Positions 1 through 61,625 of a DNA stretch of 64,000 bases are shown here, piece by piece. The stretch covers positions 2,354-66,353 of the forward strand of contig MFGV01000075.1 of NCBI GenBank assembly GCA_001778375.1, written 5' to 3'. The DNA is from Candidatus Firestonebacteria bacterium RIFOXYD2_FULL_39_29 (GTDB taxonomy: Bacteria; Oederibacteriota; D2-FULL-39-29). Under the pieces are notes generated by a model that searched no databases, had not been told where the DNA came from, and worked only from the letters and a program-made list of their open reading frames with translations. The position numbers and the translations under genes are program-made. How positions within the stretch are numbered: the stretch's first letter is position 1; each line of letters begins with the position of its first letter.

Positions 1-2149
1 TCAAAATCAATGGGTTCATTTTAGAGAAATATTCACGAAGGGCTTCACCGTATGAAGATCTCATCCATTTATTAGATGTTATATAGCAGAATATTCCAGT
101 TTCTTTTTTTACTAGCTGCAGTCCTAATTCATAAAACAAACAATAAATATCTCCTGTTCGCTCAAACGTTTTATACCCTACATTCTCATACAAGTTTGCT
201 AGAGCACCATGGTTTCTCTGTAGCTGAACGTAAGGAGGGTTCCCTATACAAATATCATATCTCTCAACACCAAGCATCATTTTTGAATCAAAGAACAAAG
301 CAGATATATCCGTCCTGAATGGATCATAGCTCTCAAGTTGCTTGCTTAACTCTGATTTCCTAATACCCTTATTATCTTTGTTTTTGGCCTCCATATATTT
401 GTAAAACTTTTCTTTTATTGCCTTTTTAGCTTTGTAATCTCCAGGCACAAAATACTCTTCTCTTGCTTCAGACACTTTACCTTCAAGCGATGTGTCATCA
501 TCAAACGCATATTGTACGCTTTCATTCTTTAGCTTCACCAAGCTGTTAGCGCAAACAAACTTAAAGACAAGGTTCGGAAGTGGATCTATTTTCCCTGTCT
601 TTGCGTGTTCATCCACCACTATTGAAAGCCAAACCCTTAACCTGGCTATCTCAATAGCCATTGGCTCTATATCAACGCCAAAAATACTATTCTTAATGAT
701 TTCCATTTTTTTCTTGTAGTGATCAATGCTTGGCTCTATTCTTTCATAGCTGGCAAGGATAAGATGAAGCATTCCCATCGGAAACGCACCGGAACCGCAG
801 GCAGGATCTATAATCTTAACTTCATCAAGAGCTTTCTCAATATCATATTTGTATTGTTTTAAATCAGCGCGATAGTTTCTTGCCTGATCCCGAAATTCAT
901 GGTCTTTGGTATCAAGGAGGAGCCCAAGAATTTTCTCCTTGTTCTGGTCATCCTTGAGTCGAGTTTTAAGATACTCCCTTAAACTTTCCTTACACATAAA
1001 ATCAACTATTTCCCTGGGAGTATAGAAGGCTCCTTTGGCCTTTCTTGCTTGTTCACCAGTTTCTTCTACCTGTTCGGCAAGGAGGTTCTCAAATATTCTT
1101 CCTAACATTTCAGGATCAATTGCTATTTGCTGGTATGTGCTGGTACTCTCGTCAGTTGTGAAATTATAGTGCTTAAAAAAACCATATAAACGGATGAAGT
1201 AATCTTTAGGGAATTTGAGTTTCTTATCTTCAAAGCCGTCGAACTCTTTAGGTTCGAAGATACCACCGTTCAAGAAAGGGGTTGTTCTATCAACGCCTTT
1301 TTCTCTTTTGTTGACTTCAGTGTTTAACACTTTGAAAAACAGCGTTTCAAGCTTTCCTTTATAATATTTTGTTCCGTCTTCAGCCTCAGCATCAAAGTAT
1401 TTATTGTCTGGACTAATAACACCTTTTTTGTTCAAAAACCAGCAAAAGATAATACGACCTAATAACCTATTTGCAAACTGTGCTGCGTGTTTTTCATCAA
1501 GATATTTTATATCTTCACTTAAGTACTGTCTTAGCTCTGTAAAGAAACCGCTTATATCTTTATAGAACTGCTTATTGACCGGTTCAAGGTCAAAACTTGA
1601 CCAAAGAATTTCGTGCGCTTGGGCTTTGTTACTAAAGTCGATGGGTTGCAGCCACTTCGCAAGAATTTCCTGTTGCGTTACTTTTAATGATTCTTCTAAT
1701 TCCAATGTTCTTATTACATAGTTTTTGCTTAATACAATAATGACTCTATCAGCCTCTTCGGGAATGATGAAATCAATGCCAACATTTAAGTCTGCAAAAT
1801 ATGGAGCATCTTCGAAGTTGGGAGTGAGGGCAACAGCCCAGCTAACATTTGCTTTTGATGAGTTCTTCAGCCAGAATGCTTTTATATCAACATTGTTTCC
1901 GCTTCCATCGGCGATTTTATAAGCTGCCCTTTTATCCGCAAATCCTTCTGCCTGCATAAAGAAACTTGCATTCGAGCGAATCTTACCTTGATTATCATTA
2001 AAGAGAACCCACTTGTCTTTGGAAGGAACATCAAGAAGGGAAATAATACCATCAATAACAGCCTGGGCATTACCAAAGCAATGCTTACTATTTAAAGCTA
2101 TTAATGCTTTATCAATAATGCCTAGCTTATTATTTATTGTCCCTGACAT
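1..2149 (-). CDS. N6-adenine DNA methyltransferase, gamma class (Eco57I/PglX/DrmMI-like), C-terminus beyond window start
   Basis: Continuous minus-strand reading frame from ATG at 2149 to position 1 without stop (hand translation). FYTPREIVDFM motif, then DPACGSGAF (motif I), then NPPY (motif IV), which is the gamma-class order. Long N-terminal extension. Start overlaps the stop of the upstream helicase gene by ~20 nt. Confidence 0.8.
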   Translation of the reverse strand, partial: MSGTINNKLGIIDKALIALNSKHCFGNAQAVIDGIISLLDVPSKDKWVLFNDNQGKIRSNASFFMQAEGFADKRAAYKIADGSGNNVDIKAFWLKNSSKANVSWAVALTPNFEDAPYFADLNVGIDFIIPEEADRVIIVLSKNYVIRTLELEESLKVTQQEILAKWLQPIDFSNKAQAHEILWSSFDLEPVNKQFYKDISGFFTELRQYLSEDIKYLDEKHAAQFANRLLGRIIFCWFLNKKGVISPDNKYFDAEAEDGTKYYKGKLETLFFKVLNTEVNKREKGVDRTTPFLNGGIFEPKEFDGFEDKKLKFPKDYFIRLYGFFKHYNFTTDESTSTYQQIAIDPEMLGRIFENLLAEQVEETGEQARKAKGAFYTPREIVDFMCKESLREYLKTRLKDDQNKEKILGLLLDTKDHEFRDQARNYRADLKQYKYDIEKALDEVKIIDPACGSGAFPMGMLHLILASYERIEPSIDHYKKKMEIIKNSIFGVDIEPMAIEIARLRVWLSIVVDEHAKTGKIDPLPNLVFKFVCANSLVKLKNESVQYAFDDDTSLEGKVSEAREEYFVPGDYKAKKAIKEKFYKYMEAKNKDNKGIRKSELSKQLESYDPFRTDISALFFDSKMMLGVERYDICIGNPPYVQLQRNHGALANLYENVGYKTFERTGDIYCLFYELGLQLVKKETGIFCYITSNKWMRSSYGEALREYFSKMNPLIL

Positions 2150-5100
2150 AATATAACATCTCCCTTGACTCAACAACCTTTGCAGTGATATTGGAACTTG
2201 CTCCCTTGTTTTTGGAGATTTTCACAAGTTCTTTTATTAATTCAAGGATGTCTTTGTTTTCTTTTGCTCTCTTTACAATTTCCCTGGTCAGCTTTTTGAT
2301 TTTCTGACTGTCCAATACATTTTTAGTCTGAAAAGATATTCGAGCTAACTTAATATCTTCCATCTCAAAGTGAAGGTTATACATAAGTTCAAGAACCTTG
2401 TTCTGCTGGCCAATAGGTGAACCAGCTGCTTCCGAAACCGTATATGACTGTGACTTTTGCCTAACAATCTCAGATACCTCCACTTTGCTGATACTAATTT
2501 TATCGGCAACACGCTTATTATCGTCTTTATTTGTCTTTAGCCATTCCAAGGCCTGAAGTTGAGGCACCGCTTTGAAATCATCACCATCTTTTGTTGTGGC
2601 ATAAAAGGCATAGCCAATTCCTTTTTCTTTTTCGGAGTCAAGCCTGCTAAGAATCAAAACATCGCCGCGCTTTTCACCATGGTGTTCACATTCCGGCATT
2701 ACAGCCCACTTGCCTTCTGATATACAGTATATGTCTTTCTTATATGCTTCAGGTATGTTTTCATCTTCATGGAATATTTTAAGATCTGACACATAATCAT
2801 CTTCCGCGAGAAGCAAATCGGACTCCTTTTCAGCCTCCTCAAACGCTTTCATTCTTTTTGCCTGATCATCACTATATATGTCTTTCCAAGTATCTGTAAA
2901 CTCAATAGGATTTTCTTTCTCGTCCAACACCGGAGTATCCGTACCTATTGTATTCTTTATGAGATTGATTTTTCCTTCCAGACGCTCTACCAACCTTAAA
3001 TGCTCTTCAAGCTGCTGTTCTGGGCTTATGTTATATATGTAAACATTTTTAAATTCTGAGCCAATCCTATTTATTCTGCCGTTTCTTTGTATCATCCTTA
3101 CTGGATTCCAATGCAGGTCATAATTTATAAGAATACCGCAATCTTGAAGGTTCTGACCTTCAGATAAAATATCGGTGGAGAATAGCCATTTTATTTCTGG
3201 TTTGCCCTTCAATTCGTATTTTTGTGCTTTAGGTGCAAAGCTTCCTGATAAAATATCTGCATCGACTCTGTTTCTTGAAGAAAGAAAGCCCTCTTTACCT
3301 TTTATGAACGGTGTGTGTTTGGGTAGTTCTCTTTTTAGATATTCAACCGTGTCTGCAAAGAACGAGAAAACCAGTACTTTTCCACCATTAGTATTCTTCT
3401 TGTTAATCTCATTGAGCAGATCGGCAAATGCTTTTATCTTTGAGTCGTCCTTTTCAATAATCGCAAGCTGTTGGTCAAGGACTTTAAGAAGTTGTTTTTC
3501 TTTTTCTATATCTTGCTTTAGCTCCTTGAGCGCATACCTCTTATCATCAACCTTATCAAGCTCAAGTTCTTTGATTTGATCCTGGTCTTCCGCATCTGCC
3601 TCATCATCACTTATCTCAAGTAATTGGCTTATAGCATCGGGATCATCCATACTAACAATTATATTTTTATTCAGTCCCTTTTCGAATATTTCCAGCTTCT
3701 CTCCGTAATTATCAAGAGAATACCGCAAAGCAGAAACAGAAGATTCAAGTCGCTTTAAAAGCGAGGTTCTTAATATCCCATATAAGCTAATCTGCCTGTA
3801 TAAATCCATTCTTTCTTCGCCGGGTAGGTTCAGCGCTTTTATCTGCTCACGCGTTTTTCCATAATACTTTGTCTGATACATTCTCCATTTGTAATGGATA
3901 AAACCTAGCATTAAGAGTGTTTTATAAACATAGCTAATCGGAGACTCATCTGTTTTCTCTTTTTCCATACATTTAATACTTCTAAGTTGCCTTAAAGGAT
4001 GCAGCAGATCTTTTGTATTATCTATAATGTCACCGGTTTGGAGGCAATATATTGTTTTCAAATCTATTTCTTTACTTTTAAGCCCCTGTATTTCCTTTAG
4101 GACTTCTTCCTTAAAACGGTATTTTTTTACTTCGGGATATGGTACCGGAAAGCCTGATTCTTTACCGTCAATTCTCAAACATCCATATTCTTTTATTATC
4201 CCCTGTCTTGTTCTACGCACCACAAAAGCCCTAATAATCGGCGCCATTATCTGCCTTACATAATCAAAATCTATCTCGCCCTTTTCACTATAATCTTGAT
4301 TCATTTTCTTTTTAAGATTTTGTATTGCAGTATAAAAATCAAGAGGAGCTGTGTGTTTAAGTTTATTATCAACAGCAGTGACCCTGAAAACATCAGCCTC
4401 CCCACCTGTGCCAAGAAGGATCTGATTTGACAAGTCATTTATCTGATTGTTAATCGGAGTGGCTGTCAGAAGAAGCACATGGCAGTTTTTATTAGTTCTT
4501 ATCCAATTAACTATCTGGTCAAATCTTTTTCCGGCTTTATTCCGTAGGTTATGGGATTCGTCTAAAACAAACAAGCTTACACCAGCTATTTTATCCAACG
4601 CTATCCGAGATTCTATCTCCTTTTGATTTTGCAGGGTTAGAGGTGTAATGTTTAAAACACCTTGGGTAGTCAATTCCTTGGTCCACTGATTCTTTAACGA
4701 CTTTGGACAAATCACCTCAATCCGCTTCTGTACACCGTCTCCGGTAAGGTACTGTTTGATGACTTCTATTGCCGTGTATGTCTTACCCAAACCGACGGAA
4801 TCGGCAAGCATCGCTACCTTGTATTTTCTTAACCTTCGGATAAGAGCGTGAACATTCTTTATCTGAAAGCTCATGAGATCGTGCGCGCCTTTTAGGCTGG
4901 TATCAAGCTCTTCTTCTTCAAGTTCTTCTTTGTACAGTTCATATAAAGTCTTGATATAAGTTTCATAAGGACTGTAAAGAGTATCTCCTACCGGAGAAAG
5001 CTCCAATATCTCGCTAAATTTTCCATCCCAGTCTTCCGTTGTCGGATCATTCCATAATTCATCAAACCAGAAGAGATGGCCTGCTTCCTGATCTTTACTT

Positions 5101-5609
5101 TTTGGTTGGAAATACACTATTCTATGGTCTGATTCTAAAGCGTTTAGCTCAGTGTTATGGGTCAATCCGCTTTCCGTAAAATTTGATGACCCAATGATGC
5201 CGATACCTTCTTTGCAGGAGTAATCTCCAAATATATAGCACTTGGCATGCAAAAAAGTCTTTCTATATACTTTGACTTCTAGAACCTTTTGATCAATTAA
5301 TTTTTTTAAACAAGTAATTGTATTTTTGAGTTTTCCGCTTGGAGGCATGCTTGCTAAATCATACTTAAAATCTTGATCAGGATAATCCGTTTCGGGGGAA
5401 GTTAATTGATGCCTTGGGATTAACGGCTCGCGTCCTATCAATAGCCGTATTTTCTTATATTTCCTTAGATTATCAATTACAAGGTCTGTTCCAGCAAGAT
5501 TCCAATATCCTGTAGCAATAGAAAGTGTATCAAAATCAGAGGAAATGTTTTTAATTGCATTCAAAAGGGAGACTCTTTTATTGTCAATTATCTTTGGTAA
5601 CCTTGCCAT
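2130..5609 (-). CDS. PLD-family nuclease domain fused to SNF2/DEXH helicase (1159 aa)
   Basis: N-terminal HKD-type motif HAKCYIF followed by GSSNFT (PLD/Nuc-like). Helicase motif I LADSVGLGKT, motif II VLDESHNLRN, motif III LLLTATPINN, motif VI QRNGRINRIGS. RBS AGGGGCGGAG upstream of ATG at 5609. Confidence 0.85.
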   Translation of the reverse strand: MARLPKIIDNKRVSLLNAIKNISSDFDTLSIATGYWNLAGTDLVIDNLRKYKKIRLLIGREPLIPRHQLTSPETDYPDQDFKYDLASMPPSGKLKNTITCLKKLIDQKVLEVKVYRKTFLHAKCYIFGDYSCKEGIGIIGSSNFTESGLTHNTELNALESDHRIVYFQPKSKDQEAGHLFWFDELWNDPTTEDWDGKFSEILELSPVGDTLYSPYETYIKTLYELYKEELEEEELDTSLKGAHDLMSFQIKNVHALIRRLRKYKVAMLADSVGLGKTYTAIEVIKQYLTGDGVQKRIEVICPKSLKNQWTKELTTQGVLNITPLTLQNQKEIESRIALDKIAGVSLFVLDESHNLRNKAGKRFDQIVNWIRTNKNCHVLLLTATPINNQINDLSNQILLGTGGEADVFRVTAVDNKLKHTAPLDFYTAIQNLKKKMNQDYSEKGEIDFDYVRQIMAPIIRAFVVRRTRQGIIKEYGCLRIDGKESGFPVPYPEVKKYRFKEEVLKEIQGLKSKEIDLKTIYCLQTGDIIDNTKDLLHPLRQLRSIKCMEKEKTDESPISYVYKTLLMLGFIHYKWRMYQTKYYGKTREQIKALNLPGEERMDLYRQISLYGILRTSLLKRLESSVSALRYSLDNYGEKLEIFEKGLNKNIIVSMDDPDAISQLLEISDDEADAEDQDQIKELELDKVDDKRYALKELKQDIEKEKQLLKVLDQQLAIIEKDDSKIKAFADLLNEINKKNTNGGKVLVFSFFADTVEYLKRELPKHTPFIKGKEGFLSSRNRVDADILSGSFAPKAQKYELKGKPEIKWLFSTDILSEGQNLQDCGILINYDLHWNPVRMIQRNGRINRIGSEFKNVYIYNISPEQQLEEHLRLVERLEGKINLIKNTIGTDTPVLDEKENPIEFTDTWKDIYSDDQAKRMKAFEEAEKESDLLLAEDDYVSDLKIFHEDENIPEAYKKDIYCISEGKWAVMPECEHHGEKRGDVLILSRLDSEKEKGIGYAFYATTKDGDDFKAVPQLQALEWLKTNKDDNKRVADKISISKVEVSEIVRQKSQSYTVSEAAGSPIGQQNKVLELMYNLHFEMEDIKLARISFQTKNVLDSQKIKKLTREIVKRAKENKDILELIKELVKISKNKGASSNITAKVVESREMLYYVRDNK

Positions 5610-5654
5610 CTATTCTCCGCCCCTGCTAAATTTTCACCCAAACAACATACAACT

Positions 5655-5880
5655 ATTATGATTTTACCATAAAAAAAGGTTTTTAAATAGTGGGAATTTG
5701 CATTTCGATGTAAAAACAAGGCAATATGAGTAGGATTTAAAAGATTTTATTTAGGGGCCGGCGGTCGCCCCTATTCGGTACTCAAGGGGTGAAACGGAGC
5801 GACCTGAAGGAATTGCGTCCGGCCCGTTTTAACTATTCGCTTATTCTATGAATTCTTTAAAAGGCTATCAAGCTAGTTAT
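5655..5880. repeat. Repeat A, copy 1: ~230 bp module with GC-rich imperfect palindrome (approx 5748-5845) plus AT-rich part carrying conserved TGGTAAAAT
   Basis: Homologous to 6455-6700. Conserved arms ATTTAGGGGCCGGCGGTCGCCC and GGAATTGCGTCCGGCCCGTTTTAAC are imperfect inverted repeats of each other; the centre differs between copies. Lies directly upstream of the helicase start. Confidence 0.7.
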
Positions 5881-6143
5881 TAGTTGCAGTTTTGCAGCAC
5901 ATTTTGAATTACTTTTAAATCTGCAATGATATTCTTCATTTCTTCATCATCATTTGTACCAAAAAGAACACTGTCGTACAAGTTTTTTTGTTCTATATGG
6001 AACAGGTGGTCATCACAAATGTTTTTCGTTATCCCTGCTGATTCTTCTTCTAAAATGCGCCTTAAAATCATAATCCGGACTTTATTTTCATCAATGCCAA
6101 AATCGTTCATCTTGCCCCCCTTGAAAATATTGGGGACAGACAC
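5880..6143 (-). CDS. hypothetical small protein (76-87 aa; probable true start MNDFGIDENK near 6110 with RBS AAGGGGGGC)
   Basis: Track ORF. N-terminal part overlaps repeat B copy 1. No recognisable domain. Confidence 0.4.
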   Translation of the reverse strand: MSVPNIFKGGKMNDFGIDENKVRIMILRRILEEESAGITKNICDDHLFHIEQKNLYDSVLFGTNDDEEMKNIIADLKVIQNVLQNCN

Positions 6144-6225
6144 CGCTTATCCTCCAAAAAGATCGGAGGATGAACAATATATAATTTTCACATTATAGTC
6201 GTTCAAAGATGTTGTCAGTCCCCGC
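6124..6225. repeat. Repeat B, copy 1: ~95 bp element with imperfect terminal inverted repeats and internal hairpin
   Basis: GGGGACAGACACC ... TGTTGTCAGTCCCC termini; internal ATCCTCC-N9-GGAGGAT hairpin; three copies in the window. Confidence 0.75.
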
Positions 6226-6253
6226 TATTTCAACCTTTGCCTATCGTAGATTT

Positions 6254-6403
6254 TTAGCCCGCTTCATTAACTTTAACGGCAGATTCATCAAACTTTTTTA
6301 AAAGCTTTATTTCCGCAGGAAGAAGAAACTTAGTATTTGAAAGTGAATTTAGCGTTAGTTTCTCTATTTCCGTCAGCACCACGTTGATTCTATATTCGGG
6401 CAT
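6254..6403 (-). CDS. hypothetical small protein (49 aa from MPEYRINVV; strong RBS AAAGGAGC)
   Basis: Track ORF 6254..6442 trimmed to the internal ATG that is preceded by an RBS. Upstream region is homologous to the helicase upstream region (repeat A module). Confidence 0.45.
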   Translation of the reverse strand: MPEYRINVVLTEIEKLTLNSLSNTKFLLPAEIKLLKKFDESAVKVNEAG

Positions 6404-6454
6404 TGAATTGCTCCTTTCATTTAATAAAAACAATTTTACCACAAAAGTGACTTA

Positions 6455-6700
6455 AAACAAAGGTTTTTGGACCAATATATTCATTACAGAGTAACGCTTT
6501 TCTATGGATTTATGGGAGAGAAAGGAAGTCATTTACGAGGATTTTATTTAGGGGCCGGCGGTCGCCCTCAGAAAAATAGAGCAATAGAAATTCGAAAACA
6601 TGCCTGACGGCATGATGCGAAAGGAATTGCGTCCGGACCGTTTTAACTACTCGTTGATTTTGTTTTTATTCTTTGAAATCTTTAAAAGGCTATCAAGATT
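6455..6700. repeat. Repeat A, copy 2 (~245 bp, GC-rich palindrome approx 6548-6650)
   Basis: Same conserved arms and TGGTAAAAT block as copy 1. The variable centre contains the hairpin GCATCATGCC-GTCAG-GCATGATGC. Confidence 0.7.
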
Positions 6701-6800
6701 GTTGTTAGCTGCTGTTTTTGCGTTATTTTGATCTGAAGTGGTTGTTCGGAATTTCCGAACAACTGATTGCTTTTCTAATTCACCTTCATTAAATATGTTG
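6700..6800 (-). pseudogene. degenerate remnant homologous to the 5880-6143 small ORF
   Basis: Minus-strand translation NIFNEGELEKQSVVRKF...NNAKTAANN resembles NIFKGGKMNDFG...QNVLQNCN of the neighbouring ORF. Flanked by repeat B copy 2 and repeat A copy 2 in the same arrangement as the intact unit. Confidence 0.3.
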
Positions 6801-6895
6801 GGGACAGACACCGGAATATCCTCCTAAGAGATTGGCGGATGAACAAATATGTATTTTACATTATGGTTGTTCAGATGTTGTCAGTCCCCGCTTTT
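6799..6895. repeat. Repeat B, copy 2
   Basis: Near-identical to 6124-6225 and 8020-8115. Overlaps the last ~11 codons of rhuM. Confidence 0.75.
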
Positions 6896-7925
6896 GTTTC
6901 TTCTCAACCTTTTTCTGCACGGTTTTAATGGTTTCCAAATAGGCTCTTTCCACAGGAGAAAGTGTTTTAACATGATATTTAAGGTATTCCTTTTCAGCTT
7001 TTTGCATTGCTTCATTGTGGCTGATTTTACCCGCGTCAGGCAGCACACCCTTCCCATACATTTTAGTAAATTTATCAAGTTCCGCTATCCAGTCTTTCAT
7101 CAGCATCCGGGTATGTTCCCGGGCTTTAATCTCAGCAAGGTCGAAAAATGCCGATACCAGGCGGTTAAGACGAAACAATTCATCTTCGTTAAGGTAATTT
7201 TTGGCGATTTTAGTTTCTGCTTTTATCGGTATCTCACCGGTAAAAGTTGTCAATCCCATAAAATCTTTTTCAGCATCGGCGCGCGAATAAATCGTTTCAG
7301 CTGCGGTTTTTTTATTGACTGCATAATGAAGTTTGTTTTGTACTGTTTTAAAAAACCGTATTGATTCTTGTGTGTCAGGATCATAATCAACACTGGTCGC
7401 GTAGAGCTCAAGGACCTGGCGGTACAGCACTTTTTCGCTGCTGCGGATATCGCGGATACGTTCTAAAAGCTCTTTCCAGTAATTCCCCCCGCCCGAGCCT
7501 TTGAGTCTCTCGTCATCCATGGTGAAACCTTTAATCAAATATTCTTTTAGTCGTTGCGTTGCCCACTGCCTGAATTGAGTGCCGCGAATACTGCTTATTC
7601 TATAACCAACAGAAATGATCATATCAAGGTTATAGAACTCAACATCTCTGGAAACATTGCGTTTACCTTCCTTTTGAACTATTAAGAATTCCTTAATAGT
7701 TGACGCACGCTCAAGTTCGCCCTCCGTGAAAATATTCTTAATGTGAATGTTAATATTGGGAATCGAAGTTTGAAACAATTCCGCCATCAATTGCTGGGAA
7801 AGCCAAACCGTCTCATCCTGAAAACGAACCTCAAGCTTCGTTTTCCCGTCTTCTGCCTGATACATCATAATTGATGAATTATTCATTAAATCCCTGGATA
7901 TTTTGTTGTTCTCAACTTGTGACAT
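6861..7925 (-). CDS. rhuM: RhuM-family virulence/Fic-associated protein
   Basis: 354 aa. Conserved RhuM N-terminal block VWLSQQLMAELFQTSIPNINIHIKNIF and the MIISVGYRISSIRGTQFRQWAT region. RBS AAGGAGC; TAGTAAAAT -10-like sequence upstream. Confidence 0.75.
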   Translation of the reverse strand: MSQVENNKISRDLMNNSSIMMYQAEDGKTKLEVRFQDETVWLSQQLMAELFQTSIPNINIHIKNIFTEGELERASTIKEFLIVQKEGKRNVSRDVEFYNLDMIISVGYRISSIRGTQFRQWATQRLKEYLIKGFTMDDERLKGSGGGNYWKELLERIRDIRSSEKVLYRQVLELYATSVDYDPDTQESIRFFKTVQNKLHYAVNKKTAAETIYSRADAEKDFMGLTTFTGEIPIKAETKIAKNYLNEDELFRLNRLVSAFFDLAEIKAREHTRMLMKDWIAELDKFTKMYGKGVLPDAGKISHNEAMQKAEKEYLKYHVKTLSPVERAYLETIKTVQKKVEKKQKRGLTTSEQP

Positions 7926-8019
7926 TATGCTCCTTATATCTCCCTTCTGCTTGTTTATTTTGTTCTAATATTTTACTACAAATGTAAGGTTTTATAAAGG
8001 AGAAATGCGAGGAGTTCGT

Positions 8020-8115
8020 ACTATTGGGGACAGACACCGAAATATCCTCCTAAGAGATTGGCGGATGAACAAATATGTATTTTACATTATGGTTGTTCAG
8101 ATGTTGTCAGTCCCC
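8020..8115. repeat. Repeat B, copy 3
   Basis: Same element, immediately 3' of the stop of the 8117-9533 gene. Confidence 0.75.
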
Positions 8116-8116
8116 G

Positions 8117-9533
8117 TTATTTCAACACTTTTCTTTTAACGGAGTAATACTTCTGTTTGGGGCTCTTTGGTTTATCCGATATAGTTGGCAGAAGCATTCC
8201 CACCTTAAGCATTGGGCTCAATATCTCTTTTCTAAAATGCTCCCGATCGCTCAATTTCAAATACTTTTGTATTTCAGTTCTTGTTCTCGGCACACGGCAG
8301 AAATCCAATATTTTCTTTACCTTTTTCTCGTCAACTTGCGGGGTAGCTTGCGGGGTGACTTGGGGGGTAACCGGTATGCTGATCTTAAAAATATCCCCCT
8401 CAAAAAGTTTCGGACTCTTGCCGGAATACGCCTTTGAATACTTAAATAAATTACGAACACCGGAACCAAGCTCATCAGCCCGCCCGATTTCTTTAAAAAC
8501 TTTAGCAATTACAGGGTTTTTTGGGTAAGGCGAAAAGTGAGCCGGATTTATTAAGCCATGCCCGTGCGGTTTATTGCTGTTTTCGGTAAACCACGCAATC
8601 ATTTTCAATAACAAGTTTCGCCGGGAAATGATTAGTAAATTCTCTGTGAATTAATATATTGCTGACAACTTCTCTAAAAAGATGGTCACGCAAATTTATC
8701 CTCTGTTTATTTTCAATATAGAACTTATCAGGAAGGTTCTTACCGATAAAAGCCATCAAACGGTCATAACTGTCAATCAGGTTTGTGTTTACAATATCTC
8801 TATCATCATACCGGTCGGTATCAACTCTTCTTACAACAGCATCTGTCTTATAATGCGGCAGAATTGAAGCAATAACAGAATCCTTCCCAAAGAGCAGGAC
8901 AGCCGCAAGTGTAAAACCTTTCTTCCCTGCCTTATAATCTTTACCATACAACTGAGCGCTCTTAAGAAGCTCCAGGTCGTCCATCTCTCCCCAGGCATGC
9001 CCGGGATTTTGAACAACAGCCAGCTTTCTTGCTCTTCGTATTACATCTTTACGGAGCTCCCCAAGAGTTAGAAAAGGAAATATCCTGTTCTCGTAATATT
9101 CCGACTGTTTACGCATATAAAGATTGGCAACCAGATTTGTATTATCAGTAATGTCAAAATCGCCGTCTTCATTTCGATCAAATATCTTCCCATTACACCT
9201 GTGAACCTGTGAACTTTCAGAGACATAAATATAAATAACAGTTTTATCTTTAACTTTCACCTCTTTTGCCGACAGGTAAAATGTGGGAGATATTTTCTGA
9301 GGATTATTTATAGCCGTAATAAATTCATTTTTTACTTTCTGAACACAATCTTCGTCCACACCGACAACATCCCCGTTATCTTCAACTCCAAGTAAAAGCT
9401 CTCCGCCAAATCTATTCAAAAACGCGCAGACAGTCTCATAGATATCTTTACTGAGATTTGACTTGCATTCTTTGAATTCAATTCGCAAGCCTTCTCCTTT
9501 GCTTATAATCGCTTTTAATTCTGACTCGTTCAT
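8117..9533 (-). pseudogene. AlbA_2 (divergent AAA/Schlafen-like) + HATPase_c_4 putative DNA-binding ATPase, split by a frameshift near 8571-8614
   Basis: Track ORFs 8571..9533 (AlbA_2-like N-terminal domain) and 8117..8614 (C-terminal HATPase_c_4-like: VIAKVFKEIGRADELGSGVRNLFKY) overlap in different frames. Together they give the usual ~480 aa architecture. Confidence 0.6.
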
Positions 9534-9682
9534 AATTTATCAGTCCTTTGTTTCTCTTTTTCTAATTCGACTAACCTTAATTAATTTAGATATTGTCGTC
9601 CGCCAGTCTTTTTGGAGGATACGAGTTTAGAGTTTCGAACTTTCTTTTTGCCGATGTTCGTCCTCCGTATTCCCTCTTGCAG

Positions 9683-9703
9683 TTGTCGACAAATTGTCGA
9701 CAG
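9683..9703. promoter_or_regulatory. tandem TGTCGACA palindromes (candidate operator) upstream of the AlbA_2/HATPase gene
   Basis: TTGTCGACAAATTGTCGACAG: two copies of a perfect 8-bp palindrome 3 bp apart in the promoter region. Confidence 0.35.
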
Positions 9704-9840
9704 CTCAGCACCATTTTAACTATTTGAAGCAACTCCCGCTTCCACGATTTTGCTGACCTCAGCAAAATGGTGAGCAATAGGATAGCCGCTATTCTTACAA
9801 GAAAGCTTTGCCTTGTCTAAGACCTTATATGTTCAACACT

Positions 9841-10572
9841 TCATTTTTGGGTCCTGGAAGCGTTGGCACGTGCTAGTAACTCGTACTCTCTAATTAAGCT
9901 GTTATCAGCAAAACTAAAGTATTTGTTGTTTCCAATAATGATATGGTCGAGTACTTTCATTTCCATGATGGTGCCTGCGGTGATTAAGCTCTTTGTGATT
10001 TCTTTATCGGCTTCACTGGGGTCGGTTTCGCCGGACGGGTGGTTGTGGGCGAATATCAAAGCGGCGGCTTTGCAGGAGATGGCTCTCTTGACTATTTCTC
10101 TGGGGTAGATTGAGGTGGAAGTAAGACTGCCTTCAAAGGCGGTTTCGGCTTTTATCAGGTTGTTTTTGACATTCAGGTAGAGGACTTTAAAGACTTCTTT
10201 TTCGAGGCCTCTCATAGATGCGTACAGGTAATCGAATACTTCTTTGGAAGAACGGCATAAGAACTTTTTGTTTTCAAGGCGCTGTTCCAGGTATTTTGAG
10301 AGGATGTCTTTTACCAGACAGATGGCTATACAGTTGTTCTTCCCCACTCCCTTTGTCTTTGTTAGCTCGTCAGGAGATGCATCCAGAACCTCTCTAAGCC
10401 CTCCCAATCGCTCTGTAAGCTCCTTTGCCATCATTCTAACGTCCCGTCTTGGAGTGCCAAATGTGAGAAGAAGTTCGACTATTTCATAGTCGTGAAAACT
10501 TTCTAATCCGGCGCGCAGGTAACGCTCGCGTAAGCGCTCGCGGTGACCGATGCGGTGTTCGTTTAATTCCAT
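9841..10572 (-). CDS. radC: RadC-like JAB/MPN domain protein (UPF0758)
   Basis: HNHPSG metal-binding motif and N-terminal HhH region. Start moved to MELNEHR (10572) because the track N-terminal extension is a translation of an intergenic repeat motif. Confidence 0.8.
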   Translation of the reverse strand: MELNEHRIGHRERLRERYLRAGLESFHDYEIVELLLTFGTPRRDVRMMAKELTERLGGLREVLDASPDELTKTKGVGKNNCIAICLVKDILSKYLEQRLENKKFLCRSSKEVFDYLYASMRGLEKEVFKVLYLNVKNNLIKAETAFEGSLTSTSIYPREIVKRAISCKAAALIFAHNHPSGETDPSEADKEITKSLITAGTIMEMKVLDHIIIGNNKYFSFADNSLIREYELLARANASRTQK

Positions 10573-10777
10573 TTTCACCCCAAGTGAAAAAATTGACGAT
10601 TTACGATTGACAATTGACGATTTTATGTACACGGCGTAAAGATGCCGCGAATATTAAATAAGAACAAAAAAAACAACCTACTGATTAATTTACTTCTGTT
10701 TCACCCCGGAACAAGAAAATAGAACAATAGAGCAATTGACCGCTACCGCTCTGCCAAATTTATCCTTCGGATAAATT

Positions 10778-10855: not shown

Positions 10856-10986
10856 ACTCTAAAAGCAAATTCTAAGCACTAAATTCGAAATTCTAAACAA
10901 TGATCAAGAATTTATAAATGTGGCGGAGGCTTTCTTCCGCCTTCATTAATTAGTCATTCGTCAATCGTAAATTCTTAAACACTTTC

Positions 10987-11063
10987 ATGGTGGGCGCTAC
11001 AGGGCTCGAACCTGTGACCCCTGCCTTGTAAGGGCAGTGCTCTAACCAGCTGAGCTAAGCGCC
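10987..11063 (-). tRNA. tRNA-Val (TAC)
   Basis: Acceptor GGGCGCT/AGCGCCC, anticodon loop CTTACAA, CCA encoded. Confidence 0.85.
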
Positions 11064-11781: not shown

Positions 11782-11854
11782 ATGGGCCATGGGGGAATCG
11801 AACCCACGACCTCCCGATTAAGAGTCGGCTGCTCTACCAGCTGAGCTAATGGCC
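11782..11854 (-). tRNA. tRNA-Lys (CTT)
   Basis: Acceptor GGGCCAT/ATGGCCC, D-arm GCTCAGCTGGTAGAGC, anticodon loop CTCTTAA (T33, A37), T-loop TTCGATT. One mismatch each in the anticodon stem and T stem. No CCA. Confidence 0.7.
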
Positions 11855-11920
11855 CATCTTTAATCCAATATAATTTTATCTTTTCTATGTTATTAAGACT
11901 ATTTTCGCCTCTTAATATTT

Positions 11921-11960
11921 GTTAAGAGTCGTCCACCTAGGTGGATGAGCTAATGGCCCA
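11921..11960 (-). pseudogene. 5' half fragment of tRNA-Lys with palindrome TCCACCTAGGTGGA in the D-arm position
   Basis: GGGCCATTAGCTCA-TCCACCTAGGTGGA-CGACTCTTAA aligns with the tRNA-Lys 5' half. Same 5' flank (AATTGAAAATGGGC) as the degenerate copy at 11614-11688. Confidence 0.45.
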
Positions 11961-12088
11961 TTTTCAATTAAACTTAAATAAAAATTTGTTCTAGTATTAT
12001 ATCAAAAATATTGATAAATACAAGATATTTTCTCTAGTAAAAGAAGGTTCTCGGTTTTTACGTGATTGAAACATTAATTTATTGTTTT

Positions 12089-47881: not shown

Positions 47882-48071
47882 AATGAATGCCTCCAAGCAT
47901 TGTGTTCCGGACATTTAAGTCCCAGAAGAATTATATCGTTACCGCTAATTTCCAGAATCGATTATAACACATCCGAACAAATATTTGTAACTTGGTTTTT
48001 TATAATCCGGCGGATGCTTCTACCGCCTTCCTTCAATCGTCAATTGTCATTGGTCAATCGTAAATTTCTTT

Positions 48072-49274
48072 TTAAATCCATCCTCTGTTTTCCATGGCGT
48101 GGATAACTTCCTGTACCGCCAAAACCAGACCTGCTTCTTTGCTGGTTAGATCCCTGCTCTTCGAAAGAGCCAGCAATTTTTCGAAACTCTTCTCAATAGT
48201 CCTGTCAATAAACTCAAAAACCTCTTCAGCTGAAGTAAGCGAACCTGATTTTGCGCTCTTCCATTCTATATAAGAAGCGATAACTCCGCCCGAGTTAGCC
48301 AGAAAATCAGGAATCACCTCGACTCCTTTATTGTTTAATACTTCATCGCCTTCTTTTGTAGTAGGCCCGTTTGCGCCCTCTACAACCAGTTTTGCTTTTA
48401 CCTTTTGCGCGGTTTTATTCGTAATTACATTCTCACACGCGGCAGGAATTAATATTTCCGCGTCAACGCCGAGCAGTTCTTCGTTGGTAATAGAATCACC
48501 CTCGAAACCTTTTACAAATCTGTTTTTATTGGTGTATTCCATAAGTTTTTTTATATCCAGACCATTCGCATTGAACAAGCCTCCGTTAACATCGGATACG
48601 GCGACAATTTTAGCCCCCATCTCCTGCAGAAAATAGGCAGTCCAGCTTCCTACATTTCCAAAACCCTGTATCGCTACTTTAAGACCTTTTACGTCACACT
48701 TTAAAAGTTTCTTTGAGGCGTAAGATGCGGAGAAAGCAACTCCTCTACCGGTCGCCTCTTTTCTACCGGGAAGACCGCCTATTCCTATAGGCTTTCCTGT
48801 TACGCATTCTGAAATGTGAAGTTCTCCATAAATTGCCGCCATTTCTCTTGGACCAGTCCCCATATCAGGAGCAGGTATATAGTAACCGGAAGAAAGATCC
48901 CCTCTAATTATATGAACGAGTTCTTTCATTATCTCCTTTTTCATATAGGAGTCGAGCTTCAAACTGTCCAGGCAAATACCGGTTTTTCCGCCGCCAAAAG
49001 GAATACCTGTAAGAGCGGTTTTTAAGGTCATACGCTCCGCAAGATCCGTGGTTTCTTCAAGCGTGACATTTTTATCGATCCTTATCCCGCCTTTAGCGGG
49101 CCCTCTTGCAGTATTGTGATAAACCACATAAGCATCAGCTACCACTAAGGTTTTATTATCAATCCAGATATTAAGATTGATTATCTTTTTTTCTTCTGAT
49201 TTTAGAAGAAGTTTTTTTGCATTTTCCTTACCTTCCAGTTCGGATTTTATTATATCCAGATCAAATATGGACAT
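48072..49274 (-). CDS. gdh: Glu/Leu/Phe/Val-family amino-acid dehydrogenase (glutamate dehydrogenase-like)
   Basis: GIPFGGGKTGI catalytic Lys region; NAD Rossmann motif GFGNVG. Start trimmed to MSIFDL with RBS AAAGGAGG. Confidence 0.8.
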   Translation of the reverse strand: MSIFDLDIIKSELEGKENAKKLLLKSEEKKIINLNIWIDNKTLVVADAYVVYHNTARGPAKGGIRIDKNVTLEETTDLAERMTLKTALTGIPFGGGKTGICLDSLKLDSYMKKEIMKELVHIIRGDLSSGYYIPAPDMGTGPREMAAIYGELHISECVTGKPIGIGGLPGRKEATGRGVAFSASYASKKLLKCDVKGLKVAIQGFGNVGSWTAYFLQEMGAKIVAVSDVNGGLFNANGLDIKKLMEYTNKNRFVKGFEGDSITNEELLGVDAEILIPAACENVITNKTAQKVKAKLVVEGANGPTTKEGDEVLNNKGVEVIPDFLANSGGVIASYIEWKSAKSGSLTSAEEVFEFIDRTIEKSFEKLLALSKSRDLTSKEAGLVLAVQEVIHAMENRGWI

Positions 49275-49698: not shown

Positions 49699-49838
49699 TC
49701 ATACCTCCGTTCAGAACGTTACACGTTACAACGTTACTCACGTTTTACAATATAGTATTTTTATATATTTTATTTAGCGGAGGTTTTTATCCGCCTACCT
49801 TAAATCGTCAATTGTCATTCGTCAATCGTAAATATCTT

Positions 49839-51554
49839 TTAAAACAGTCCTACCACTTTTCCATCTTTATCAATGTCAACCTTTGTGCCTGCGGGTACAG
49901 AAGGAAGTCCGGGCATTGTTCTCATGTCACCGCAGATCGGATATAGAAACCCTGCGCCTATTGAAGCTCTGATATCTCTGACAGGTAAAGTAAAGCCGGT
50001 CGGACGCCCTTTTAGCGCCGGATCATGAGAAAGGGAAAGGTGGGTCTTAGCCATGCAAATAGGAAGTTTGTCCCAGCCTAAACCGCTATAAAGCTTGATC
50101 TTATCCTCAGTGGCCGCAGTGTAAGAAACATTTTTTGCGCCGTAGATCTTAGTGGCAATAATTTCAATCTTTTCTTTAATTGAAGCTTCAAGAGGATAAA
50201 GAAATTTGAATTTTGATTTCTTTTCGCAGGCTTTAACCACTGCTTGTGCAAGTTCTTTTCCGCCTTCTCCGCCTTTTTCCCAGACTTCAGAAAGTACGGC
50301 ATCCTCCGCTCCGGCCTGAATTGCTTTTTGTCTGATATATTCAATTTCTTTATCAGTGTCCGTTGTGAATTTATTTATAGCGACAACCACAGGAACGCCA
50401 AAGAGTTTTGCATTTTCTATCTGTTTTTCAAGATTACAGATCCCCTCTTCAATTGCTGTCATATTTTCTTTTAACAAATCGTCCGGAATCGATTTACCCG
50501 GAATTATCGTAAATTGCCCCGAGTGCATCTTTAAAGCTCTGACCGTACAAACCATCACTACGCAGTTAGGTACAAGTTTGCTGTAACGGCATTTAATATT
50601 CATAAATTTTTCCATGCCCATATCCGCGGCAAAACCGGATTCTGTGACAACGTAATCCGCGAGTTTCACAGCCATCTGATCCGCAAGTATGGAGTTATTT
50701 CCATGCGCAATATTGGCAAAAGGACCGGCATGAACAAAACAGGGTGTATGTTCCGTGGTTTGAAGGAGCGTCGGTTTTATTGCATCTCTCATTAGCACTG
50801 TCATGGAGCCCGCAACTCCGAGATCTTCAGCGGTAACAGGTTTACCGTCTTTTGTAAAAGCAACCACAATGCGCCCCAGGCGCTGCCTTAAGTCTTTTAA
50901 ACTTGTAGTCAAAGCAAGTATAGCCATAACTTCAGAAGCCACAGAAATATCAAATCCGCTCTGTCTTGCAATACCATCGTCTTTACCGCCGAGACCAATT
51001 ATAACATTTCTCAGAGCCCTGTCGGATATGTCAACCACCCTTCTCCAAAGGATCTGATTTAAATCTATGTTAAATTTGTTTCCTTTATGAAGATGATTAT
51101 CAAGAAAAGCTGCACAAAGGTTATGAGCAATAGAAACCGCGTGAACATCCCCGGTCAGATGGAGGTTAAAATCTTCCATTGGTACAACCTGGGAATACCC
51201 ACCGCCTGCAGCCCCGCCTTTAATACCAAATACAGGCCCCAGTGACGGTTGTCTTATTGCTGTAATAACCTTTTTTCCGATTTTTGCCAACCCGAGTGAT
51301 AATCCGATTGTTGTTACTGTTTTCCCCTCTCCAAGCGGAGTCGGGGTGATCGCTGTAACATCAATATATTTACCGGTGTGTTTTGCTTTTAAGCGGTTTA
51401 AAAGTTCGAGCTTTACCTTGGCTTTATTATCCCCGTACAGCTCAAGTTCTTCTCTTTTAATCCCTATTTTTGAAGCTATTTCAGTTATAGGTTTAAGCTT
51501 TATACCCTGTGCAATAGTAATATCCGAAGGTACTTTCGACTTTTTAACTTTCAT
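49839..51554 (-). CDS. fhs: formate--tetrahydrofolate ligase
   Basis: TPTPLGEGKTVTTIGL signature, 571 aa. Confidence 0.9.
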   Translation of the reverse strand: MKVKKSKVPSDITIAQGIKLKPITEIASKIGIKREELELYGDNKAKVKLELLNRLKAKHTGKYIDVTAITPTPLGEGKTVTTIGLSLGLAKIGKKVITAIRQPSLGPVFGIKGGAAGGGYSQVVPMEDFNLHLTGDVHAVSIAHNLCAAFLDNHLHKGNKFNIDLNQILWRRVVDISDRALRNVIIGLGGKDDGIARQSGFDISVASEVMAILALTTSLKDLRQRLGRIVVAFTKDGKPVTAEDLGVAGSMTVLMRDAIKPTLLQTTEHTPCFVHAGPFANIAHGNNSILADQMAVKLADYVVTESGFAADMGMEKFMNIKCRYSKLVPNCVVMVCTVRALKMHSGQFTIIPGKSIPDDLLKENMTAIEEGICNLEKQIENAKLFGVPVVVAINKFTTDTDKEIEYIRQKAIQAGAEDAVLSEVWEKGGEGGKELAQAVVKACEKKSKFKFLYPLEASIKEKIEIIATKIYGAKNVSYTAATEDKIKLYSGLGWDKLPICMAKTHLSLSHDPALKGRPTGFTLPVRDIRASIGAGFLYPICGDMRTMPGLPSVPAGTKVDIDKDGKVVGLF

Positions 51555-61365: not shown

Positions 61366-61625
61366 TTACTTTCCGCCACAAAGCGTTGGCGGACTGCTCG
61401 CCTAGATACCAGCGACCAGGCTTTTTTTTGCTTCCTGTATTTGCCGTATTTGCTGTTTGTGCTTCTCTTGCTTCCCCTGCTTTACTTTCCGCCATAAAGC
61501 GTTGGCGGACCCGCCCTTAGCGAGGTCTCACCACTAAAGAGTGGTGGACTGCTCACCCAGATACCGGCGACCAGGCTTTTTTTACTTCCTGTACTTGCTT
61601 TATTTGCTGTCTTTGCTTCCCTTGC
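61366..61625 (+). repeat. tandem direct repeat (2 units, ~105 and ~155 bp), each with a TCCGCCA-N8-TGGCGGA hairpin and T-run; unit 2 has an extra CACCACTAAAGAGTGGTG hairpin
   Basis: Units start CTTTACTTTCCGCCA(C/T)AAAGCGTTGGCGGAC and end GCGACCAGGCTTTTTTT, each followed by a pyrimidine-rich tail (GCTTCCTGTATTTGC...). Confidence 0.6.

Follow-up and report, generated by a model that had tools for sequence, protein, structure and literature searches.

Three copies of a palindromic element of 90-92 nt in Candidatus Firestonebacteria bacterium RIFOXYD2_FULL_39_29 are closed by an inverted end box that also closes hairpins in other phyla. The copies lie beside the gene rhuM in a 64,000-nt stretch of contig MFGV01000075.1 (positions 2,354 to 66,353), hereafter the window, by which we mean the whole of that stretch. 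They have a common structure and common flanks, their box belongs to a cross-phylum family, and the members of that family show a strong strand bias. The wider result is the weightier one, as the same 11-13 bp stem, mismatch included, closes hundreds of otherwise unrelated hairpins in soil and water bacteria of at least five phyla. We give about an even chance to the reading that this is a class of small palindromes resembling the repetitive extragenic palindromic (REP) sequences and REPINs, and that the window copies arose from one rhuM-linked ancestor by duplication and recombination. In its present state the window element is a fixed, low-copy relic acting as a joint in a rhuM patchwork. 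It has no Rfam family (searches at gathering and permissive thresholds on the window, and at gathering thresholds on 18 loci, returned tRNAs only) and looks like a little-described sort of small palindromic mobile repeat.

Copy limits were counted box-to-box, and the strand reading GGGGACAGACA...TGTCAGTCCCC, here the plus strand, was called F. On this basis, copy c1 occupies 6132-6223 (92 nt), c2 6800-6889 (90 nt) and c3 8026-8115 (90 nt), all three in the same orientation among local genes that are all on the minus strand. An earlier note on this DNA had placed the copies at 6124-6225, 6799-6895 and 8020-8115; their existence is beyond doubt, although those limits were 4-8 nt too wide. The note had also located them at or over gene 3′ ends, and this is correct: c1 begins 30 nt past the stop of a 49-aa open reading frame (ORF), c2 covers the 3′ end of rhuM and directly adjoins part of a rhuM paralogue, and c3, said to follow the stop of the AlbA_2/HATPase gene directly, starts 1 nt past the Fic-like_C stop codon and is 100 nt upstream of the ATG of rhuM. 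A left-end probe (TTGGGGACAGACACCG) and a right-end probe (GATGTTGTCAGTCCCCG), of 16-17 nt, each found exactly three matches in the window with no more than three mismatches, a count of matches reached in 0 of 100 shuffles. The identity of c2 and c3 is 92/93, while that of c1 with either is ~82-84%.

The terminal inverted repeat claimed for the element is present, but it measures 11 bp with one mismatch (GGGGACAGACA vs GGGGACTGACA) instead of the 26 bp of a Correia repeat, and past these 11 bp the left and right ends are unrelated. The mismatch is A.A on F and U.U on the gene strand. Every copy is predicted to fold with the 11-bp end stem closing two inner hairpins, and c1 folds with z = -6.0 on the gene strand and -5.5 on the plus strand. 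The inner hairpin ATCCTCC-N9-GGAGGAT, which had been described for the element as a whole, is perfect in c1 only, c2 and c3 having GGCGGAT. A Joint Genome Institute (JGI) metagenome scan with a pattern from the element interior gave four chance matches and one true relative, L130 (38% GC; ~89% identical to c1), which is the sole other member of the subfamily there and stands 33 nt upstream of another, truncated rhuM. As L130 is homologous to the window copies box-to-box only, the element is a discrete unit. No compensatory changes were found across the four known copies (c1, c2, c3 and L130).

The end box is far more widespread than the interior. Scanning one genome per species with the pattern GGGGACAGACA-N50-80-TGTCAGTCCCC revealed at least 123 elements of 44-102 nt, in at least 120 loci, that bear the 11-13 bp box; these counts are lower bounds, and we estimate that chance alone would give about two matches to 22 fixed bases. 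Among the matches listed, the hosts are Acidobacteriota (a Solibacter bin with ~45 loci, and Bryobacterales), Armatimonadia, Nitrospira (including a complete genome), Planctomycetota, Hydrogenedentales and others, with the reservation that some bins (e.g., Arcobacter, Bathyarchaeia) may be mis-binned. Nitrospira AP038806.1 and Terriglobia OZ252023.1 are complete genomes with the element. Viral contigs gave one locus only, and a plasmid BLAST gave no match. A consensus of 48 representatives shows conservation in the box alone, GGGGACAGACA(C/G)C ... G(G/C)TGTCAGTCCCC; the interiors are wholly different between lineages and their base composition follows the host. Forty of the 48 fold as a single long hairpin, and many relatives have an A-tract before and a T-tract after it, often as an inverted pair. 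The elements are mostly intergenic, with convergent and divergent flanking gene pairs in a ratio of 26:11 by crude gene calls, and no neighbouring gene recurred among the matches listed. At one orthologous intergenic site an element is present in locus L107 and missing from L053 and L066, and at another (L004/L019) the two elements have identical 22-nt stems but divergent loops. Membership of the end box in so large a cross-phylum hairpin class makes a mobile origin likely, and one that is REP-like rather than Correia-like.

Short forms of 44-53 nt also occur in several phyla (L031, L049, L054, L015, L118, L110, L120), as do tandem duplications of half-elements that include the A/T-tract flank. 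Three of the short forms, labelled Planctomycetota and Bathyarchaeia, have a common loop, CAAAC(T/A)GCCG.

The orientation of the box elements tracks local GC skew. In 85 of 113 cases (85:28; binomial p = 7e-8), F coincided with the strand that is locally richer in G, the split being 69:10 where the absolute skew exceeded 0.03, and a cross-table of orientation against GC skew gave an odds ratio of 10. This bias was seen in every subfamily (Armatimonadia 12:1, the Bryobacterales type 21:7, Solibacter 21:14, others 35:8), while orientation relative to gene direction was unbiased (56:57). Of the two strands, F gives the better fold in 80 cases and its complement in 28. For the IS200/IS605 insertion sequences it is well established that an orientation which follows the replication strand indicates a substrate of single-stranded DNA, located on the lagging-strand template. 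Given this precedent and the skew-linked orientation, we read the class as REP/REPIN-like. Its members are imperfect palindromes whose 11-13 bp boxes pair with an A.A mismatch around a lineage-variable interior, and an enzyme with its gene at another place in the genome may copy them, as hairpins of single-stranded DNA, at the replication fork. The features of REPs and REPINs used for comparison (PMC2817692, PMC3337134) are matched in many aspects: short imperfect palindromes, with two conserved inverted segments and a variable spacer forming a long hairpin of ~70-110 nt; extragenic positions that favour gene 3′ ends, no target duplication, and mostly no adjacent transposase; tandem or partial clusters, persistence at orthologous sites and a strand asymmetry that fits a single-stranded DNA substrate.

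The earlier note had called the element Correia-like, or a miniature inverted-repeat transposable element (MITE). Correia elements (CREE/NEMIS) have 26-bp inverted repeats, a TA duplication, an integration host factor site, proven promoters and RNase III cleavage, and occur in more than 100 dispersed copies restricted to Neisseria (PMC2649163, PMC10969869). The window element does share with them the ~100 bp size class, inverted ends, hairpin-forming transcripts, positions next to or overlapping genes, altered gene ends and promoter-like hexamers. What survives of the comparison is thus a discrete hairpin repeat with inverted ends that alters reading frames; an 11-bp instead of a 26-bp repeat, no TA duplication, the wrong promoter spacing (13/15 nt) and a low copy number, with three clustered copies, rule out membership in the Correia family. 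An 11-bp end stem is also short for RNase III. An origin from Tn3-derived miniature elements, whose inverted repeats are 38 bp long and begin with GGGG and which make a 5-bp duplication, was likewise rejected: the ends here share the GGGG, but their repeat measures 11 bp and no 5-bp duplication is present.

A broader form of the idea, in which a classical MITE derived by deletion from a DDE-transposase insertion sequence is mobilised in trans and its copies donate promoters or terminators, appears unlikely to us. Such an origin is in keeping with the small size, short inverted ends, non-coding nature and several copies of the element, with its hexamers and GGAGGA, and with the presence or absence of a box element at an orthologous site in other lineages. 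No target-site duplication, neither TA nor any other direct repeat, was found at c1, c2 or c3. Their immediate flanks are ..ATT/GGGG and CCCC/GCT (c1), GTT and GCT (c2), and ATT and GTT (c3); the c1 flanks CTTGAAAATATT ... GCTATTTCAAC read 5′-TTG...CAA-3′, while c2 and c3 lack even that pairing. Nor did 38 Solibacter copies show a duplication (offsets 0-5, lengths 2-5), and flanks in the family are often inverted A-/T-tract pairs. A box-bounded long element or a transposase was found neither in the window nor in the 826 kb of loci listed. Box pairs 0.5-4 kb apart were considered as full-length elements and rejected, being one-mismatch chance matches, truncated copies, or copies flanking housekeeping genes; the genes between paired copies are housekeeping genes. 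In addition, a strand bias linked to GC skew is not expected of cut-and-paste transposition of double-stranded DNA.

The regulatory part of this proposal fared no better. Each copy contains the hexamers as the earlier note wrote them, CTGACA-N15-TATAAT in c1 and CTGACA-N13-CATAAT in c2 and c3, but with spacers of 13/15 nt a sigma-70 consensus scan of the gene strand found no promoter-like site inside any copy, and the suggested role as promoter donor is not borne out. The nearest promoter-like site for rhuM lies at 7998-7970, downstream of c3. A terminator scan of both strands likewise found no terminator-like site at any copy, contrary to the suggestion of a terminator hairpin. Dispersed repeats of this sort are known, and the SPRITEs of pneumococcus and the inverted pairs of Neisseria uptake sequences resemble the A-/T-tract-flanked, G+C-rich stems of the family in other phyla, which look like bidirectional intrinsic terminators; the window copies differ in having no T-run immediately after the stem and in not being called by the scan.

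The flanks of the window copies tell how they are related. On the minus strand, the gene-upstream flank of c1, AAAGGTTGAAATAGC (6224-6238), is common to c3 (8116-8131) and, with an 8-nt gap, to c2 (6890-6912). The consensus for c1 and c3 is AAAG(T)GTTGAAATA(G/A)C, and the gapped c2 version lies within the 3′ end of rhuM. This flank may be either part of the repeat unit or what is left of the 3′ end of a gene, Fic-like_C homologues being variable in their tails. The gene-downstream flank of c1, AATATTTTCAA (6121-6131, minus strand), is common to c2 (6789-6799) and matches the Asn-Ile-Phe codons of rhuM. Here c1 (AATATTTTCAAGGGGGGC) and c2 (AACATATTTAATGAAGGTGAA) enter rhuM-like sequence at the same codon, where intact rhuM has AAGAATATTTTCACGGAGGGC, and each is joined to a 5′-truncated rhuM paralogue. 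Thus, c1 combines the upstream junction of c3 with the downstream junction of c2. Intact rhuM is bracketed by c2 and c3, which stand in direct repeat at a distance of 1226 bp. These common flanks show that the copies spread along with their neighbours and not by three independent insertions, and duplication with recombination at the element accounts for the three copies better than three transpositions.

A second type of repeat, B, alternates with the element. B1 (5745-5893, minus strand) is a G+C-rich hairpin with a variable centre that follows a degenerate rhuM segment, and B2 (6545-6718, minus strand) is its partner; neither has an Rfam match. Contig L155 has no B hairpin at the corresponding position, and in the strain variant L156 the hairpin is longer by 230 nt; B therefore looks like another small element of insertion or recombination, and like a site at which strains differ. 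Its ends are conserved, reading GGGCCGGACGC...GCGACCGCCGGCCCC on the gene strand, in a host genome of 38% GC. A TTGATA-N17-TAGAAT motif upstream of the B hairpins was considered as a designed promoter and set aside, as it is most likely degenerate rhuM coding sequence (NLDMIIS..YRIS codons).

Taking these junctions together, we propose that one ancestral copy became joined to a truncated rhuM, that a module of ~670 bp, made up of the element, the rhuM fragment, the B hairpin and a small ORF, was then duplicated in tandem to give c1 and c2, and that later recombination at the element left intact rhuM between the near-identical c3 and c2. The last step may have been a Campbell-type insertion of a circle carrying rhuM and the element, or an unequal crossing-over. 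The present role of the element would then be mostly structural, as portable homology at module joints.

One consequence can be read directly from rhuM. The final 29 nt of the gene (6861-6889) come from c2 and comprise part of an Arg codon, eight sense codons and the stop; the earlier note had rightly seen that the element gives rhuM its 3′ end and stop, although it counted 11 codons. RhuM here ends in ...KKQKRGLTTSEQP, while in an alignment of C-termini with 14 homologues, the 13 from other organisms end in ...KKVEKKxKDE(N/K)HH(D/E) or similar. The element has thus replaced the last codons and stop of RhuM with its own. It explains this odd tail as well as the patchwork of rhuM fragments downstream, and it marks the break points of assemblies. 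The tail KKTSEQI of the homologue P0049 was considered as a second element-derived tail and rejected, the DNA there being without the element.

An arrangement of this kind also recalls gene cassettes. The attC sites of integrons, also known from clusters that lack an integrase, are imperfect palindromes of 60-140 bp at ORF 3′ ends, in one orientation; their folded strand contains mismatched bases, and their ends are conserved around a centre that varies. The possibility that a recombinase inserts and excises units such as rhuM plus the element, at what would be an attC-like site, must therefore be weighed, and we judge it improbable. The window copies are imperfect palindromes that share one orientation, each after an ORF, and one overlaps a stop codon, as attC often does. 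The near-identical direct copies bracket rhuM as they would after the integration of a circle, the B hairpin alternates with the element and varies between strains, and several contigs terminate at c or B. However, RYYYAAC and GTTRRRY, the core motifs (R″/R′) that pair at the base of an attC hairpin, do not occur here, where the flanks have TTG...CAA in place of AAC...GTT, and no integrase lies nearby, which rules out membership in attC proper. No recombinase or integrase is present among the scanned island ORFs, the contig ending ~9.5 kb beyond the window. Moreover, in other phyla the family consists of single box elements dispersed among housekeeping genes, and no arrays were found.

Variation at the element is likewise missing. 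About 20 contigs from Rifle-type groundwater samples hold the same three copies at the same places, with no variation at c, and when strains were compared by way of RhuM, AlbA_2 and the 49-aa ORF, every allele had its copies and the B hairpin alone proved variable, so that the comparison with strains lacking individual copies, proposed in the earlier note, found the copies fixed. A mobility check by copy number and target duplication, proposed there too, gave no sign of movement: within ~84 kb of genome (the window and ~20 kb beyond), no further copy was found and those present are confined to the island. This is in essence the outcome that the earlier note had named as refuting its reading. 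Two other contigs differ from this arrangement. In L155 the 49-aa ORF stands in a different neighbourhood, followed by radC, and homology to the window stops ~17 nt before the c1 box; the strain variant L156 has, besides its enlarged B hairpin, an extra module and other downstream genes.

Several observations weigh against the REP/REPIN-like reading with descent from one ancestor. What the box elements conserve is the base of a single long stem, A.A mismatch included, and the window element is low-copy and within one island, both unlike REPs and REPINs. The latter are mobilised by RAYTs, which are Y1 HUH transposases related to IS200/IS605, and a genome with them has a single-copy RAYT gene between two inverted REPs. 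REPs carry a GT(A/G)G head 5′ of the palindrome (PMC2817692). Neither GTAG nor GTGG stands beside the box in the window copies or in the 48-representative consensus, and no RAYT is linked, which rules out canonical REP membership. A search of the 826 kb of loci turned up neither a Y1 transposase nor a RAYT gene, the former sought by phmmer with an IS200 TnpA query against the ORFs of all loci. REP sequences and REP-RAYT pairs are normally lineage-specific, whereas the box is identical across phyla. The window copies and L130 have the opposite of the majority polarity, with F on the G-poor strand. The window subfamily is very rare, having one relative in the JGI metagenome scan, and no excision or empty-site variant of the element occurs in the ~20 population contigs. 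The gene calls underlying the orientation statistics are crude, and the 15-nt common upstream flank could belong to the element instead of being a gene remnant.

A different view of the element is as a cis-regulatory RNA, a structured leader or 3′ untranslated region in which a hairpin between anti-Shine-Dalgarno and Shine-Dalgarno (SD) sequences (AUCCUCC...GGAGGAU) and a stem-buried GUG control the translation or stability of rhuM-linked messages. On the minus strand, c1 has GGAGGAT-N5-GTG (6141-6155) and c2 and c3 have GGAGGAT-N6-GTG (6809-6824 and 8035-8050), the GGAGGAT pairing with an upstream ATCCTCC or ATCCGCC. This GGAGGAT-N5/6-GTG arrangement and the structure are kept in all four copies, c1 folds well (z = -6), and the element lies upstream of rhuM in two different organisms. 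GGAGGAT had been placed at the end of the element, but it lies 19-20 nt inside. The donation of a ribosome-binding site suggested earlier is right insofar as an SD-like GGAGGA and a GTG are supplied: the ORF at 5880-6143, whose start the earlier note had seen as lying inside the first copy, begins at the c1 GTG, and that at 6647-6811 at the c2 GTG, both reading VSVPNIF. The ORF after c1 has no homologue among 5.8 billion proteins and that after c2 is a fragment of a rhuM paralogue, however. The GTG is itself part of the cross-phylum box (GGTGTC[A/T]GTCCCC), so that it is a by-product of the box. Given also that compensatory changes and an Rfam match are absent, that rhuM genes of three other lineages have no such element, that c3 lies upstream of rhuM's own promoter-like site, and that the wider family has no orientation bias relative to genes, we regard a regulatory RNA as very unlikely. 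Under the REP/REPIN-like reading, the element sets a hairpin-folded SD-like GGAGGA and GTG before whatever sequence lies downstream.

A bolder extension of the REP/REPIN-like reading, which we hold to be rather doubtful, takes the box family as one undescribed cross-phylum superfamily of single-stranded DNA hairpins copied on one replication strand by a horizontally spreading enzyme; in low-GC lineages such as Firestonebacteria its members would be joints for the insertion, duplication and truncation of defence genes such as rhuM, and so a device for exchanging cassettes that is unrelated to integrons. If one enzyme recognises the box, a widely shared system for copying hairpin DNA would follow, and it could be found through genes that co-occur with the box. 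The phyla that host the box are not among the MITE hosts of a 2024 review of prokaryotic MITEs (PMC10969869). A full-text literature search for the box sequences returned primer coincidences only and no relevant paper, and a keyword search for MITEs in the box-host phyla gave nothing useful. This box-linked, strand-biased hairpin class deserves separate study.

The genes around the element make up the first part of the window. Positions 1-10,700 are a defence-type island adjoining a cluster of five tRNA genes, and the rest holds housekeeping genes. The island encodes RadC, AlbA_2, HATPase_c_4/Fic-like_C, RhuM, small ORFs and an SNF2/PLD helicase, followed beyond the window by an MmeI/Eco57I-like methyltransferase. 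Intact rhuM (PF13310; Pfam E = 4.8e-109) occupies 6861-7925 on the minus strand, and its product is 100% identical to a protein of bin RIFOXYC2_FULL_39_67. A fragment of a second rhuM paralogue, equivalent to residues 52-94, lies at 6674-6799 on the minus strand, fused in frame to c2; against the RhuM P0049 it gave a BLASTP E of 1e-11, with 22/44 residues identical. RhuM is ~70-83% identical across Syntrophales, Omnitrophica, Patescibacteria, Auribacterota and others (homologues P0002-P0120), and such identity across distant lineages points to frequent horizontal transfer. Elsewhere, rhuM is found within type I restriction-modification operons or beside a DDE transposase.

The HATPase_c_4/Fic-like_C ORF (8117-8614, minus strand), whose stop codon abuts c3, overlaps the AlbA_2 ORF (8571-9533) by 44 nt in a different frame. 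Homologues hold both parts in one protein, so that the window pair looks frameshifted or split; contig L139 has a ~80-nt deletion within the AlbA_2 part. The 49-aa ORF (6254-6403 in the window, 4001-4150 in L155, where it precedes radC) has no Pfam match and is probably a real small gene: the two proteins are identical and the DNA differs by two synonymous changes, while the non-coding flanks are ~90% identical. Farther into the island (window 1-5609; L131 12317-19810), a 1159-aa PLD + SNF2 helicase, a 1051-aa MmeI/Eco57I-like methyltransferase and a 292-aa domainless protein form a candidate defence system. In the strain variant L156, an AAA_14/DUF4143 gene stands in place of this candidate system.

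Other repeats were noticed in the window. A ~54-nt repeat rich in TCGTCAAT/GTCAATCGTAAAT occurs at 10937-10990, 48023-48076 and 49791-49844, and inverted at 10587-10651; it is found close to the tRNA genes and upstream of those for glutamate dehydrogenase and formate-tetrahydrofolate ligase, and contig L147 is rearranged at its first copy. A 53-nt pair on the plus strand (61376-61428 and 61531-61583; 83% identical, 155 nt apart), ending in T7 and opposite to the local genes, possibly represents small RNA genes or terminators. Finally, a direct repeat (11842-11895 and 11946-11999; 70% identical) starts in the 5′ end of a minus-strand tRNA-Lys gene and runs past it, and could be a partial tRNA duplication of the type left by integration.

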